Source: Eubacterium sp. (lineage in GTDB: Bacteria; Bacillota; Clostridia; Oscillospirales; Acutalibacteraceae). Taken from it: a stretch of 64,000 bases of DNA. Shown here in pieces: positions 35,187 through 39,746 of this stretch; positions within the stretch are counted from its first letter, which is position 1; the number at the start of each line of letters is the position of its first letter. The stretch spans positions 11,978 through 75,977 of the forward strand of contig JAFSZK010000057.1 in the NCBI GenBank assembly GCA_017458975.1, read 5' to 3'. The translations under genes were made by a program, and so were the position numbers. Under the pieces are notes generated by a model. It had not been told where the DNA came from. It worked only from the letters and a program-made list of their open reading frames with translations, and did no database searches.

Positions 35187-35284
35187 ATAACAGACATCTT
35201 GCCATTAAGCAAGGTGTTATTATTTTTTAAAATATACAAATTATCAAAAGCGTATAAAAAATTATTAGATTATATATTGTAATA

Positions 35285-35313
35285 TTGACTATTATTAAAA
35301 TAAATGTTAAAAT
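35285..35313 (+). promoter_or_regulatory. Sigma-70-type promoter of the oxidoreductase-hypA operon
   Basis: TTGACT-N17-TAAAAT. Confidence 0.65.
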
Positions 35314-35325
35314 ATTAACGATTAG

Positions 35326-35343
35326 TATGCCCCCTGGGGGGAT
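35326..35343. promoter_or_regulatory. Putative CsoR/RcnR-family operator
   Basis: tatgCCCCCtGGGGGGat: C/G tracts flanked by AT-rich DNA, just downstream of the -10 box. Confidence 0.45.
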
Positions 35344-35381
35344 TTGAATAATCAGGAAAATATTATGATTGGAGAAGTATT

Positions 35382-38201
35382 ATGGCAGACAAAATGTTAG
35401 GCTATGCTCCCGAGTGGACCTATGATGATTCCATTCCGATTCGTGAGCCGATAATGAAGCTTGGCAAAATGATTACCGACAGAATTCCGATTGTTCTCGG
35501 CGTTCGCAAAATCACCAAGCAGGACCCCGAATACTGGGCAGTAGCAACGATTTGCCCCACCGATGAGATGGCTGAGATAGCACTGCGTATGAAAAAGCGC
35601 AATCCGCGTACTCTCGCCGATATGAAAAAGCTCACCGCTAATATGAATCTCAGCGACTCTATTGAGAATCTTCTTGAGCAAATGAGCGAAAACGGTCTTA
35701 TCGAGTGGAACTATGAAAACGAACAGCATGAAAAGCAGTGGGTGCTTCCTATGTTCGTGCCCGGTTCAGCCGAGTTCTCAAATATGAACAGCGAGATGCT
35801 CGAAAAGCATCCCGAGCTCGGTATGTTCTTTGAAAGAATGACCCGACTTCCTCTTGAAAAGGTAACTCCTATGGTGCCTCCCGGAGGCGGCGGAATAGGA
35901 ATGCACGTTATTCCCGTTGAAAAAGCTATTGAGATGGAAAACGAGGCAATAGGCCTTGAAAAGATTTCTCACTGGCTTGATAAATATGACGGAAAATATG
36001 CCGCTTCTCCCTGCTCCTGCCGTGCGTCAAGAAAGACCTACGGAGAAGGCTGTGCCGACGACCCTGAGGGTTGGTGCGTTGCAGTAGGCGATATGGCTGA
36101 CTATGTTGTTGAAACCAAGAAGGGCGGCCATTACATAACAAGAGAGCAGGCGCTTGAAATCTTTAAGCAGGGCGAGGAAAACGGCTTCGTTCACCAGATT
36201 ACAAATATCGACGGCGAAGACAAAATCTTTGCTATTTGTAACTGTAACGTAAATGTGTGCTATGCACTTCGTACGTCACAGCTCTTCAACACCCCGAATA
36301 TGTCGCGTTCGGCTTACGTTGCAAACGTTAAGAAAGAAAACTGCGTTGCCTGCGGACGCTGCGTTGAGCATTGCCCGGCAGGTGCGTTAAAGCTCGGCCA
36401 GAAGCTTTGCAAAAAGGACGGCAGCGAGGTTACTTATCCCAAGCAGGAATTACCCGATACAGTTAAATGGGGTCCCGAAAAATGGGAAGAGGAATACAGG
36501 GATAAGAACAGAATTAACTCCCACGAGTCGGGTACCGCTCCGTGTAAGACGGCGTGTCCCGCTCATATCGCTATCCAGGGTTATCTTAAGATGGCGGCTC
36601 AGGGAAGATATGAGGACGCTCTTGCTCTTATAAAGAAAGAAAATCCCTTCCCCGCAGTTTGCGGTCATATCTGTAACAAGCGCTGCGAAGAGGCTTGTAC
36701 AAGAGGTACGGTTGACGAGGCTATCGCAATTGACGACGTAAAGAAATTCCTCGCTCACCGCGATATGGATAATAAGACAAGACTCATCCCCAAGAAGGTT
36801 ATTCCGAAGATTACCGTTGACGGCGTATTTGACCGTGAGCCCGGCTTTACCGAAAAGGTTGCTATTATCGGCGCAGGTCCCGCAGGACTTTCATGTGCGT
36901 TCTTCCTTGCCGAAAAGGGCTATCTTAACGTAACGGTATTTGAAAAGAATAAGGAGCCCGGCGGAATGCTTCGTTACGGTATTCCTAACTACAAGCTCGA
37001 AAAAGAGGTTATTGACGCTGAGATTGATATCATCCGCGAAATGGGCGTTGAGATTAAATGCGGCGTTGAGATTGGTAAGGATATTACCCTTGACGAGCTT
37101 CGTGAGCAGGGCTATAAAGCATTTTATATGGCAATCGGCGCACAGGACGGAAGAAAAGCAGGCGTTGAAGGCGAGGACGCACAGGGCGTGCTCACCGCTG
37201 TTGAATTCCTCCACGAGGCTGCCGAAAAGGAAGCATACGATATCGGTAAAAACGTTGTTGTAGTCGGCGGCGGTAACGTTGCTATTGACGCAGCAAGAGT
37301 AAGCGCGCACTGCGGAGCTGAAAATGTTTCAATGTTCTGTCTTGAGAGCAGAGAGGAAATGCCTGCTGCCGAGGACGAGATTGAAGAGGCTATGGAAGAC
37401 GGCGCAACCATTAACTGCGGCTGGGGTCCGAAGGAAATCCTTAAGGACGATAACGGCAAGGTTAAGGCTATCGTGTTTAAAAAGTGCTTATCCGTATTTG
37501 ACGAGGAGCACCGTTTCTCGCCGAAGTATGACGAAAACGATACAAAGACCGTTGAGTGCGAAAACGTTATTCTTTCAATCGGTCAGGCTATTGAGTGGGG
37601 CGGACTTCTTGAGGGAAGCGCAGTTGAGCTTAACCGTAATATGACGGCTCAGGCTGACTCATTTACCTTCCAGACCGCTCAGCCCGATATCTTCGTAGGC
37701 GGCGACGCTCTTACCGGACCGCGCTTTGCTATTGACGCAATCGCAATGGGTAAGGAAGGCGCAATCTCGATTCACAGATTTGTTCAGCCCAATTCAACTC
37801 TTACAATCGGACGTAACCCGAGATACTACGTTGAGCTTGATAAGGATGACCTCACCCTTGAGGGCTACGATACGGCTCACCGCCAGGTACCCAAGGCAAC
37901 CAGGAAGGTTGACAAGATGGGCTTTAAGGACGATTATAAGATGCTTACCGAGGAGCAGGTTAAGATTGAAACAAACCGCTGTCTCGGATGCGGCGCAACA
38001 ATCGTTGACGCAAACCGTTGTATCGGATGCGGCGTATGTACAACCAAGTGTGAATTCGACGCAATCTATCTCAAGAGAGAAAGACCCGAATGCTCAACCA
38101 TGTACAGAGCCGAGGATAAGCTCAAGGCAATTCTTCCTTATACTGTCAAGAGAGAATTTGCAATTAAGAAAGCTAACCGTGCTGCTAAAAAAGGCAATTA
38201 A
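35382..38201 (+). CDS. Multidomain Fe-S/FAD/NAD(P) oxidoreductase (Cys-rich N-domain, ferredoxin motifs, GltD/NfnB-like flavoprotein)
   Basis: CSCR..C..C and ICNCNVNVC; CVACGRCVEHCP; PCKTACP..VCGHICNKRCEEAC; GAGPAG; GGGNVAID; CIGCGVCTTKC. Confidence 0.85.
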   Translation: MADKMLGYAPEWTYDDSIPIREPIMKLGKMITDRIPIVLGVRKITKQDPEYWAVATICPTDEMAEIALRMKKRNPRTLADMKKLTANMNLSDSIENLLEQMSENGLIEWNYENEQHEKQWVLPMFVPGSAEFSNMNSEMLEKHPELGMFFERMTRLPLEKVTPMVPPGGGGIGMHVIPVEKAIEMENEAIGLEKISHWLDKYDGKYAASPCSCRASRKTYGEGCADDPEGWCVAVGDMADYVVETKKGGHYITREQALEIFKQGEENGFVHQITNIDGEDKIFAICNCNVNVCYALRTSQLFNTPNMSRSAYVANVKKENCVACGRCVEHCPAGALKLGQKLCKKDGSEVTYPKQELPDTVKWGPEKWEEEYRDKNRINSHESGTAPCKTACPAHIAIQGYLKMAAQGRYEDALALIKKENPFPAVCGHICNKRCEEACTRGTVDEAIAIDDVKKFLAHRDMDNKTRLIPKKVIPKITVDGVFDREPGFTEKVAIIGAGPAGLSCAFFLAEKGYLNVTVFEKNKEPGGMLRYGIPNYKLEKEVIDAEIDIIREMGVEIKCGVEIGKDITLDELREQGYKAFYMAIGAQDGRKAGVEGEDAQGVLTAVEFLHEAAEKEAYDIGKNVVVVGGGNVAIDAARVSAHCGAENVSMFCLESREEMPAAEDEIEEAMEDGATINCGWGPKEILKDDNGKVKAIVFKKCLSVFDEEHRFSPKYDENDTKTVECENVILSIGQAIEWGGLLEGSAVELNRNMTAQADSFTFQTAQPDIFVGGDALTGPRFAIDAIAMGKEGAISIHRFVQPNSTLTIGRNPRYYVELDKDDLTLEGYDTAHRQVPKATRKVDKMGFKDDYKMLTEEQVKIETNRCLGCGATIVDANRCIGCGVCTTKCEFDAIYLKRERPECSTMYRAEDKLKAILPYTVKREFAIKKANRAAKKGN

Positions 38202-38203
38202 TA

Positions 38204-38548
38204 ATGCACGAGCTCGGAATAGTTTTTCATATTATTAAAACAATCGAAGAGGTGGCTGAGGAGCAAAGCCTTACAAAGGTGTCCTCCGTCACCCTTGAGG
38301 TTGGCGAGGTTTCAACCGTAATTATCGAATATCTCGAGGACTGCTGGGTATGGGCTTGCAAAAAAAGCGAGCTTATGAAGGACTCAAAGCTGAAGCACGA
38401 GATTGTTAAGGGCGTTACCTACTGCGAGAATTGCGGTAAAACCTATGAAACCGTTAAATACGCTAAAATCTGTCCTTACTGTAACTCGGAAAATACCTAT
38501 CTTATTCAGGGAAACGAGGTACAGATTAAGGAAATTGAAGCTCAGTAA
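38204..38548 (+). CDS. hypA: HypA/HybF-family nickel metallochaperone
   Basis: N-terminal MHE Ni-binding motif, two CxxC (CENC, CPYC), G.E..IKEIE end. Confidence 0.92.
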   Translation: MHELGIVFHIIKTIEEVAEEQSLTKVSSVTLEVGEVSTVIIEYLEDCWVWACKKSELMKDSKLKHEIVKGVTYCENCGKTYETVKYAKICPYCNSENTYLIQGNEVQIKEIEAQ

Positions 38549-38609
38549 AGTTCTTTCCGGCTCTTTTTAAGAACCGCAAATATATTTTTCTTACAGGAGG
38601 AAAAACATC

Positions 38610-39707
38610 ATGGGAATGTTATTCCAGATTTACGGTGATACAAGCATCTGGCAGCTTGTCGGATGGTGTCTTGCTTTCACCGGACTCGTTGTTGCTAATG
38701 AAATAGCACGACGCACCAAGATAGGCGGTATTTTCTGCTTTATCGTTTTACCCTCAGCCCTTACGGTTTACTTTATTGCAATCAACATTGCAGCCAAATC
38801 AGGCGCTGAATGGGCAGTAAACAACCCGACAATTGTTCAGATGAACGGTTGGTTCCACTATGCAAAGCTCTATGCGGCAACAGTCGGCTGTATCGGCTTT
38901 ATGATTCTTAAATATCAGTGGGGCAGCCTCGGAAAGAGCCATTGGTTCAAGGCTTATCCGTTCCTTATTGTTGGTATTAACATCCTTATCGCGGTTGCTT
39001 CCGACTTCGAATCTGCAGTAAAAGGTATGCAGATTGGCGGAATGCAAGGCGGCTGGTGGTATTCATCAGAAGGCGTATGGCTTTACGGCGGCTGGTGGAA
39101 TATCCTCAACGGTATCGCGGGCTTAATCAACATTATGTGTATGACCGGCTGGTGGGGAATCTACTCCTCGAAAGACCAGAAGGATATGCTCTGGCCCGAT
39201 ATGACCTGGCAGTTCATCCTTGCATACGATGTTTGGAACTTTGAGTATACTTACCTCAATCTTCCTCTTCACACCTGGTACTGCGGTGTTGCACTTCTTC
39301 TTGCACCGACCTTTGCAAACCTCTTCTGGAACAAGGGCGGCTGGATTCAGAACCGTGCAAACACTCTTGCACTCTGGTGTATGTTCGCTCAGGTTGTTCC
39401 CGGATTCCAGAACCACTCACGTTTCACAACTCTTCCCACAGTTTACAAAGCAGCAGAGAGATTTGCTACCGGCGCTGACGGAAGAATGAATCCTGACCTC
39501 GTTCTCAGCGCTTCCGACGCTAACCCGACAGCTCAGGGCGTAGTTGCTATTCTTGCTATCGCTGTTAATGTTCTTGTTATTACAAACATTATTAAGAGAG
39601 CTAAGGAGCAGAAGAAGAATCCGTATAAGAACGAAATCTTTGCTGATACAAAAGACTTCAAGCTTGCTCTTGAAAGAGCAGCTGCAGCTAATAAAGAGGT
39701 AGCATAA
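38610..39707 (+). CDS. Multi-pass membrane protein, DUF5692-like
   Basis: Trp-rich TM protein with WFHYAKLY, NILIAVASDFE, DMLWPDMTW and WIQNRANTL; family recognised from memory. Confidence 0.6.
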   Translation: MGMLFQIYGDTSIWQLVGWCLAFTGLVVANEIARRTKIGGIFCFIVLPSALTVYFIAINIAAKSGAEWAVNNPTIVQMNGWFHYAKLYAATVGCIGFMILKYQWGSLGKSHWFKAYPFLIVGINILIAVASDFESAVKGMQIGGMQGGWWYSSEGVWLYGGWWNILNGIAGLINIMCMTGWWGIYSSKDQKDMLWPDMTWQFILAYDVWNFEYTYLNLPLHTWYCGVALLLAPTFANLFWNKGGWIQNRANTLALWCMFAQVVPGFQNHSRFTTLPTVYKAAERFATGADGRMNPDLVLSASDANPTAQGVVAILAIAVNVLVITNIIKRAKEQKKNPYKNEIFADTKDFKLALERAAAANKEVA

Positions 39708-39716
39708 AAAAATAAG

Positions 39717-39746
39717 AAAGGCAGTTGAGAAATCAACTGCCTTTTT
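39717..39746. terminator. Bidirectional terminator between convergent operons
   Basis: aaaggcagttga-gaaa-tcaactgccttt hairpin. Confidence 0.8.

Follow-up and report, generated by a model that had tools for sequence, protein, structure and literature searches.

An IsrA-type oxidoreductase operon with its own HypA lineage and a DUF5692 membrane protein in a Clostridia genome: a candidate nickel/iron-sulfur module

The operon and its oxidoreductase

The DNA analysed here, which we call the window, is a stretch of 64,000 nucleotides (C8:11978-75977 of an assembly of 1.85 Mb in 117 contigs, with a completeness of 90%) from a genome whose closest named relatives are rumen Oscillospiraceae/Clostridia metagenome-assembled genomes (MAGs). 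Between positions 35285 and 39744 of the window, from promoter to terminator, lies a unit of three genes encoding an iron-sulfur flavoprotein oxidoreductase, the nickel chaperone HypA and a membrane protein of the family DUF5692. Its features are listed below, the promoter and terminator calls being consensus matches.

35285..35313, + strand: sigma-70-like promoter, TTGACT-17-TAAAAT with extended TG, upstream of the oxidoreductase gene (consensus scan)
35327..35345, + strand: GC-rich short hairpin of the 5' leader, core CCCCCTGGGGGG, downstream of the -10 box and ahead of the oxidoreductase gene's ribosome-binding site (sequence)
35382..38201, + strand: oxidoreductase gene, predicted IsrA-type Fe-S flavoprotein of 939 residues (open reading frame (ORF); Pfam, NCBIfam and PDB matches)
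38204..38548, + strand: hypA, 114 residues (ORF, PF01155)
38610..39707, + strand: DUF5692 membrane protein gene, 365 residues (ORF, PF18948)
39717..39744, no strand assigned: bidirectional intrinsic-terminator-like hairpin with a 12-bp stem (scan and sequence)

An earlier note on this DNA had described one promoter, three genes and a terminator, with hypA starting 2 bp after the oxidoreductase stop. This layout holds: the three ORFs lie where the note had placed them, the signals at 35285-35313 and 39717-39744 are recovered by consensus, and the hypA ATG at 38204 stands 2 nt beyond the stop codon TAA (38199-38201). A gap of 61 nt separates hypA from the DUF5692 gene, which has its own AGGAGG. 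The unit is split from the cysK-like (pyridoxal-phosphate enzyme) gene upstream by a terminator-like hairpin that follows that gene at 35193-35218, while the hairpin at 39717-39744 is common to the unit and a convergent acyl-CoA ligase gene.

The same note had read the first gene product as a 939-residue oxidoreductase with CxC motifs in its N-terminal domain, ferredoxin motifs and a GltD-like FAD/NAD module, and for the last two of these Pfam and PDB matches agree. Pfam places Fer4 at residues 316-337, Fer4_20 at 385-464, Pyr_redox_2 at 492-790 and a weak C-terminal Fer4 at ~873-911; in NCBIfam the 'NAD(P)-binding proteins' of GltD-like type are its only relation, and a sub-threshold one. By both sequence and fold, residues ~385-870 resemble NfnB/StnC/NfnABC, dihydropyrimidine dehydrogenase (DPD) and GltD, the best match being 9bov_A (sequence E 8.8e-97, Foldseek E 9.8e-42), with DPD (1gt8) also matched by sequence. 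The AlphaFold2 (AF2) model of the whole protein has a predicted local distance difference test score (pLDDT) of 82.3 and a predicted template modelling score (pTM) of 0.85. The protein can be divided as follows.

35382..36311, + strand: N-terminal domain, residues 1-310, with a six-cysteine (Cys6) site; candidate nickel/iron-sulfur catalytic site (residue invariance)
36315..36410, + strand: first ferredoxin-type [4Fe-4S] motif, C321, C324, C327, C331, and C343 (Fer4; cysteines invariant)
36534..37751, + strand: predicted electron-input module, Fer4_20 (two [4Fe-4S]) and FAD/NAD(P)H-binding Pyr_redox_2 (Pfam, PDB, Foldseek)
37980..38078, + strand: C-terminal ferredoxin-type [4Fe-4S] motifs, C867, C870, C880, C883, C886, C890 (weak Fer4_8/Fer4_21)

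Invariance was assessed in two sets, one of 27 diverse representatives (down to 28% identity) and one of 38 full-length homologues, which are 894-963 residues long and align end to end with the window enzyme at 46-90% identity. In the N-terminal domain, C211, C213, C232, C286, C288 and C293 are invariant, together with E265 and H271; C224 is conserved only in part. Four of the six cysteines form two CxC motifs, C211xC213 and C286xC288, 75 residues apart. The cysteines C321/324/327/331 and C343 are likewise invariant in both sets, and C867/870/880/883/886/890 are invariant in the 38 homologues. For residues 1-310, sequence comparison with Pfam, NCBIfam and the PDB gave nothing, permissive thresholds included, and Foldseek with the whole model returned the GltD-like half only, with no fold relative of the N-terminal domain found.

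A protein of this design has been described. IsrA, reported by Kronen et al. (2023, mSystems; PMC10134865) as a putative isoprene reductase of Acetobacterium wieringae ISORED-2, with its homologues termed 'clade 9', is an FAD/NADH oxidoreductase of 901 residues whose clusters comprise four canonical [4Fe-4S] sites and, as 'cluster V', a Cys6 site. Its CxC motifs, C180/C182 and C254/C256, are spaced 74 residues apart, and its ferredoxin motifs lie at 289-300 and 848-877 (PMC10134865). The window oxidoreductase has the same landmarks, offset by ~30-31 residues, which would place it in the IsrA family. On these landmarks we assign it to the IsrA-type 'clade 9' group, and conclude that the operon is of a kind already published in 2023 and widespread. 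Firmicutes and spirochaetes of the gut and rumen very commonly carry the oxidoreductase family, some protein clusters of which have more than 1,000 members; a cluster look-up of ten ~900-residue representatives gave no Acetobacterium or Pelotomaculum names. The earlier note had spoken of a possible 'unrecognised' Ni/Fe-S site in the Cys-rich N-terminal domain. A candidate site is supported, but the idea is not new, since Kronen et al. proposed that HypA and HypB insert nickel into cluster V of IsrA (PMC10134865).

Two side observations concern parts of this protein that occur elsewhere. The profile of the N-terminal domain matches, at 78-96 bits, stand-alone proteins of 376-461 residues at G160:C100:12464-13246, G218:C53:8430-9158, G267:C35:68958-69788, G166:C6:43618-44424 and G074:C2:1755016-1755738. 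As with the ferredoxin of the A. wieringae isr operon, this suggests that the Cys6 domain can also form a protein family of its own. Outside the window, at G000:C103:6730-8130(-) (G000 being the source genome), is the gene of a second GltD-like protein. This product is 34% identical to residues 385-871, shows no N-terminal Cys6 domain match and is probably a conventional subunit of the GltD/NfnB type.

HypA, HypB and their linkage to the oxidoreductase

The product of the second gene is matched by PF01155 at 107.8 bits (cut-off 28.9), aligns end to end with Helicobacter pylori HypA (6g81/2kdx) and is the sole HypA of the source genome. As the earlier note had reported, and as can be read from the sequence, it keeps the N-terminal MHE and both CxxC motifs of the zinc ribbon, C74xxC77 and C90xxC93. 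The MHE start and two CxxC motifs are found in 62/62 oxidoreductase-linked HypAs. In a maximum-likelihood tree of 45 HypAs, which left out nine fetched stretches where the pattern found no ORF, 24 oxidoreductase-linked HypAs fall on one side of a branch with moderate support (84/72), and 0 of 500 label shuffles were as clustered. Judged by this tree, the oxidoreductase-linked HypAs are a distinct lineage.

There is no hypB within the operon or the 64-kb window. The absence of HypB, along with that of hydrogenase and urease, had been a point of the earlier note; no hydrogenase or urease has been found in the 90%-complete genome, but HypB is encoded at another locus of the source genome (TIGR00073, 217 bits, cut-off 121). 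Two contig ends each hold part of its gene, at G000:C88:26625-27176(-) and C10:2977-3108(+), and the translations of the two fragments overlap (SSPGSGKTTTL), indicating that C10 and C88 join and that hypB lies between a fused ABC-ATPase/FtsX-type transporter gene and hpt. It is not near any hydrogenase. The protein shares 70-76% identity with HypBs encoded beside the oxidoreductase in other taxa and falls in their subfamily, and we therefore take it to be the cluster's own HypB, moved to another locus. Since it scores as a TIGR00073 equivalog, and not as ZigA or CobW, nickel rather than zinc is suggested as the metal.

An ordinary client for HypA was sought in the whole genome and rejected. 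Neither [NiFe]-hydrogenase large-subunit model (PF00374, PF00346), nor HypD, HypF, urease alpha or Prismane/carbon monoxide dehydrogenase (CODH), gave a match in the 90%-complete genome. Thus a complete hyp/hydrogenase set, which in the terms of the earlier note would have accounted for HypA, is not found in it. The nickel transporters CbiM/NikM and NiCoT/NicO were not found there either. The genome does encode, outside the window at G000:C82:6450-7733(-), a LarA-like protein of 427 residues (Lar_N, 47 bits), whose gene adjoins those of 6-phosphogluconate dehydrogenase (gnd) and a PfkB-type sugar kinase and has no larB/C/E nearby. LarA uses LarC/LarE, not HypAB. The LarA-like protein is not a plausible client of HypA; it may be a nickel-pincer-dependent sugar-acid epimerase.

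Co-occurrence was counted in one even draw of 250 Clostridia genomes, each at least 90% complete. The full-length oxidoreductase is present in 16 of them, and in 16/16 HypA is directly adjacent. No PF00374 match is seen in 11 of these 16 genomes, some of which are 99-100% complete, and three genomes (G075, G213 and G277) have a second HypA beside hydrogenase. HypA exceeds the threshold in 45 of the 250 genomes: 24 have hydrogenase, 16 have the oxidoreductase (five have both) and ten have neither. Eight of those ten represent a weakly scoring HypA-like group of one family. This group, an observation apart from the operon, is divergent, scores 58-68 bits and matches from profile position 6-7 on; its carriers, all of family f45 (G208, G233, G099, G258, G129, G182, G282 and G066), have no hydrogenase match and no IsrA-type oxidoreductase, and the group may represent a further lineage of orphan HypAs.

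Run over species-representative genomes, the N-domain profile returned at least 596 loci, of which the best 80 were examined; 60 of these were complete with flanks. Adjacent to the oxidoreductase in these 60 complete named loci are HypA (49), HypB (45) and DUF5692 (39), and the commonest order is hypB-ox-hypA-DUF5692 (24/60), where 'ox' stands for the oxidoreductase gene. Anaerosporobacter faecicola and a Spirochaetales MAG have this order, Dorea has ox-hypA-hypB with DUF5692 5.5 kb downstream, and in Paraclostridium bifermentans a TetR gene and a second DUF5692 gene lie beside hypB-ox-DUF5692-hypA. Within the genus of the source genome, DUF5692 is found in 14 of 24 other genomes. Twelve DUF5692 loci of this genus, the window's own included, read ox-HypA-DUF5692 (nine), ox-DUF5692 (one) or DUF5692 alone (two), and the genomes with a solitary DUF5692 locus carry the oxidoreductase elsewhere. 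For 988 IsrA homologues, the published neighbourhood frequencies are 0.73 for HypA, 0.56 for HypB, 0.40 for DUF5692 and 0.21 for TetR, so that HypA, HypB and DUF5692 are reported there as the neighbours met most often (PMC10134865). The gene linkage is far beyond chance.

Expression data from other hosts bear on the same genes. Isoprene induces IsrA, HypA and HypB in A. wieringae, where the operon also includes hypB, a pair of hypA genes and a ferredoxin gene and where the genome lacks [NiFe]-hydrogenase and hypCDEF (PMC10134865); in a 2026 preprint, hypA and hypB of Pelotomaculum are up 373-fold and 585-fold with isoprene. The proposal of the earlier note, that the client of HypA may be the Cys-rich N-terminal domain of the oxidoreductase, gains from several of our results: adjacency in 16/16 genomes, 11 of them with no [NiFe]-hydrogenase match, the separate second HypA of genomes with a hydrogenase, the lineage of the linked HypAs, and the invariant cysteines. 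At the level of comparative genomics, then, the view that this HypA serves the oxidoreductase rather than a hydrogenase or urease is supported.

Two further observations were made around the linked loci. In the Spirochaetales MAG, a DsbD_2-family membrane protein is encoded directly upstream of hypB-ox-hypA-DUF5692 (L119:2519-3166); it is a candidate for an additional component in the membrane that would transfer metal or thiols. Where the 5' leader of the window's operon has its short GC-rich hairpin, two close relatives (L038, L037) have an inverted repeat that is likewise GC-rich but of another sequence. As the repeat differs in sequence and keeps its place, the stem seems to be conserved rather than the sequence, and the hairpin may be a 5' stabiliser or an operator.

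DUF5692, the proposed mechanism and its rivals

The third gene product, called 'DUF5692-like' in the earlier note, is a true member of the family: PF18948, its sole Pfam match, aligns at 456.5 bits (cut-off 27) over profile positions 2-303 of 304, and there is no NCBIfam match. Its AF2 model (pLDDT 84.3, pTM 0.86) has nine long helices, and Foldseek gave no PDB fold relative for it (best E 0.08, TM at most 0.28). The family comprises two subfamilies, one of 345-365 residues, to which the window's protein belongs, and one of ~311 residues, found in Peptostreptococcaceae, Clostridium, Bacillaceae, spirochaetes, Bacteroidota and Eggerthellaceae. Each subfamily is ~70% identical across very distant hosts, and identity between the two is ~40%. 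Residues N30, E31, R34, D132, D192, P196, D197, Y206 and D207 are invariant in both, as are W209, N210, F211, Y213, T214, Y215, H221, C225, Q247 and R249. Many of these residues are polar, and the pattern they make seems closer to that of an active site than to that of a pore.

The identity of the N-terminal domain of the oxidoreductase across taxa is similarly high, at 65-79% between Oscillospiraceae, Lachnospiraceae, rumen spirochaetes and Erysipelotrichaceae (loci L078, L092 and L112 of Treponemataceae, L095 of Erysipelotrichaceae, and L079, binned as Bacteroides). Taken with the ~70% identity of DUF5692, this points to repeated horizontal transfer of the cluster within gut ecosystems.

Nine of the sampled genomes have a real DUF5692 copy; the oxidoreductase is present in seven (adjacent in five) and absent in two. 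The gene also stands alone beside TetR regulators, as in Fervidibacillus and as the second copy of Paraclostridium, and genome G076 has DUF5692 with no match to HypA, the oxidoreductase or hydrogenase. DUF5692 is associated with the oxidoreductase, but as a facultative partner. In the literature searched, it is mentioned only by Kronen et al. (2023; PMC10134865).

The earlier note had suggested that the membrane protein might be a transporter or an electron partner. Known nickel/cobalt permeases (NiCoT/NicO, CbiM/NikM) were rejected as relatives, there being no similarity of sequence or fold. TetR control and the gene content of G076 would argue against a nickel permease and for a role with a hydrophobic substrate. 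DUF5692 is probably neither a nickel permease nor an electron carrier.

The explanation that we favour overall, and hold to be moderately probable, is that this is an IsrA-family operon in which HypA and HypB load nickel for the Cys6 site of an enzyme that hydrogenates C=C bonds. In this mechanism HypB and HypA would deliver nickel to the Cys6 site or to a place beside it, and electrons would pass from NAD(P)H to FAD, through the [4Fe-4S] chain, to the Ni/Fe-S site. The logic would be that of DPD, with the FMN domain swapped for the Cys6 domain. The Ni/Fe-S site would hydrogenate a C=C bond, its substrate being hydrophobic and unactivated and, as the likeliest case, a conjugated diene. DUF5692 would be a facultative membrane partner that supplies or prepares such a substrate.

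A number of observations weigh against this explanation. HypA scores 65.6 bits with TIGR00100 (cut-off 88.1) and falls under every HypA equivalog cut-off of NCBIfam, making it a divergent subfamily; about one fifth of the complete loci have no adjacent HypA, and L012/L036 and L023 read ox-DUF5692 with no hypA between. Since 10% of the genome is missing, hydrogenase and the other ordinary clients are 'not found' rather than absent, and the LarA-like gene means that the cell may hold another nickel-dependent protein. The placement in the IsrA family, relative to VUZ27132.1, was made from the published description of its landmarks, and IsrA-like proteins still count as uncharacterised in a 2026 preprint, none having been purified. 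Finally, CxC motifs also occur in Fe-S-only or disulfide sites, for example in ferredoxin:thioredoxin reductase (FTR), and in ISCA2 (PMC10134865). Those CxC precedents, the divergence of HypA and the existence of loci without hypA or hypB would all suit an all-iron Cys6 site, namely an FTR- or HdrB-like [4Fe-4S] cluster with a redox-active cysteine pair, HypA and HypB then having no role in nickel delivery and acting instead with another metal, as a scaffold or in the control of assembly. We judge such a site to be unlikely, given that the nickel-binding MHE N-terminus is kept in all 62 linked HypAs, that the partner GTPase is a clear HypB equivalog and not of the zinc/cobalt CobW type, and that HypA and HypB are not known to act on Fe-S-only proteins.

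The two other rivals concern the neighbours of the enzyme. DUF5692 could be a new nickel importer that feeds HypA/HypB, so that the operon would couple metal uptake to enzyme assembly. Its gene comes directly after hypA, no CbiM/NikM or NiCoT/NicO was found in the genome, and invariant His221, Cys225 and Cys94, with several Asp/Glu, lie in or near its helices; all the same we think an importer quite improbable, in view of the solitary DUF5692 genes with TetR (Fervidibacillus and the second Paraclostridium copy), the lack of any HypA, oxidoreductase or hydrogenase match in G076, a model unlike known transporter folds, and an isr operon of A. wieringae that has HypA and HypB but no DUF5692 (PMC10134865). 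It is also conceivable that the adjacency is incidental, and that a hydrogenase, a urease or CODH, encoded in the unassembled 10%, is the ordinary nickel enzyme for whose maturation HypA and HypB serve, the more so as the assembly is in 117 contigs and hypB itself is broken over two contig ends. We find this very hard to credit when PF00374, PF00346, HypD, HypF, urease alpha and Prismane/CODH all went unfound, when HypA is adjacent in 16/16 sampled genomes, 11 of them without hydrogenase and some of those 99-100% complete, and when hydrogenase-bearing genomes have a separate hydrogenase HypA, the linked HypAs being a distinct lineage.

A further reading, which is a tentative lead and rather unlikely to be right as it stands, is that hypB-ox-hypA-DUF5692 is the long-sought module with which rumen and gut bacteria biohydrogenate polyunsaturated fatty acids (PUFA), with DUF5692 as a membrane linoleate (cis-12 to trans-11) isomerase and the IsrA-type enzyme as a nickel-dependent conjugated linoleic acid (CLA) reductase giving vaccenic acid. 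Butyrivibrio, Pseudobutyrivibrio, Roseburia and a rumen Treponema hydrogenate linoleate. Three Butyrivibrio strains, Butyrivibrio proteoclasticus among them, carry close homologues and all have DUF5692; in Pseudobutyrivibrio and in a Roseburia MAG the DNA examined has hypB-ox and no DUF5692; and rumen Treponema MAGs have either the full cluster (L112) or the oxidoreductase alone (L078, L092). A full cluster with the ~311-residue type of DUF5692 is found in Paraclostridium bifermentans, whereas for Paeniclostridium sordellii nothing beyond a DUF5692 protein came to light. By a route through c9,t11-CLA, linoleate is reported to be hydrogenated to vaccenate in C. bifermentans, C. sordellii (PMC9302108 for these two as well) and C. 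sporogenes, and the linoleate isomerases of Butyrivibrio (B. fibrisolvens) and C. sporogenes are membrane-bound and uncloned (PMC12254105); the genes for PUFA biohydrogenation in P. bifermentans were still unknown in 2022 (PMC9302108). Like membrane linoleate isomerases, then, DUF5692 occurs in known linoleate hydrogenators. The only cloned membrane isomerase, BBI/LAI of Bifidobacterium breve, has 330 residues, nine transmembrane helices and no known relatives (PMC9636412, PMC12048573), and DUF5692, with 311-365 residues and nine predicted helices, resembles it in size and helix number and has enzyme-like invariant polar residues.

CLA is a conjugated diene, as is isoprene, the only known substrate of IsrA, which would fit a CLA reductase, and an isoprene operon without DUF5692 would fit an isomerase called upon only where the diene has yet to be formed. 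On this reading, DUF5692 on its own beside TetR would mark bacteria that accumulate CLA. Against this lead, the CLA reductase purified from B. fibrisolvens is reportedly of 53-60 kDa, not 104 kDa, and the oxidoreductase family is common in many Clostridia without a known phenotype. The lead is further weakened by the fact that the best 80 matches to a rumen query would be rumen or gut taxa anyway. Clostridium sporogenes is not among the best 120 relatives of the Paraclostridium enzyme, which is uninformative, and no paper in the literature searched ties HypA/HypB to linoleate or to biohydrogenation in such a module.

What is new in these results and how they compare with known systems

Beyond what is published for the IsrA family, our analysis adds the invariance of the six cysteines together with His271 and Glu265, the separate lineage of the linked HypAs, and a hypB that acts from another locus. 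In the case of DUF5692 the new elements are a predicted nine-helix fold without a PDB match and a conservation pattern like that of an enzyme. If HypA and HypB do provide nickel, IsrA-type enzymes would be a new class of nickel enzyme and, among known biological catalysts, the first to use such a route for the hydrogenation of unactivated C=C bonds, and the orphan hypA and hypB genes of hydrogenase-free gut genomes would be explained. The window is a clean, minimal example of the arrangement, with one hypA, no hydrogenase found and hypB at another locus. Were the link to biohydrogenation also true, it would bear on the fat composition of milk and meat and on CLA production, though we offer it as a lead only.

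IsrA itself is the nearest known system. The two enzymes have in common a single chain of ~900 residues, the order of domains, four [4Fe-4S] motifs, a Cys6 site whose CxC pair is 74-75 residues apart, and a neighbourhood drawn from the hypA/hypB/DUF5692 families; in both the A. wieringae host and our source genome no [NiFe]-hydrogenase is seen. The isr operon, however, has two hypA genes, hypB and a ferredoxin resembling the N-terminal domain, and no DUF5692, whereas the window has one hypA, DUF5692, and hypB elsewhere. Their hosts differ as well, A. wieringae being an acetogen and the window's host a rumen/gut Clostridia MAG, and isoprene is unlikely to be the main rumen substrate of the window enzyme.

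For the chaperones, the action of H. pylori HypA/HypB on urease is a precedent for a nickel client other than hydrogenase, and H. pylori HypA has the MHE and zinc-ribbon positions in common with that of the window. It also serves hydrogenase and hands nickel to UreE, whereas the window's HypA, in a genome where no hydrogenase or urease is seen, belongs to a separate lineage. For the electron-input half of the oxidoreductase (residues ~385-870), the best matches are GltD and the large subunits of NfnB/StnC/NfnABC, which are subunits of transhydrogenase, bifurcating and glutamate synthase (GOGAT) complexes with neither a Cys6 domain nor Hyp partners.

By analogy of mechanism, we consider DPD (PDB 1h7w, 1gt8) to be the closest counterpart of the window oxidoreductase. 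Both have an NADPH-FAD module and a chain of four [4Fe-4S] clusters leading to a distant site, which in DPD reduces a C=C bond, and the likeness extends over ~440 residues (Foldseek E ~1e-28). They differ in what lies at the far end of that chain: DPD ends in an FMN domain like that of dihydroorotate dehydrogenase (DHODH), whereas the window enzyme has instead an N-terminal Cys6 domain and a nickel chaperone as its putative partner.

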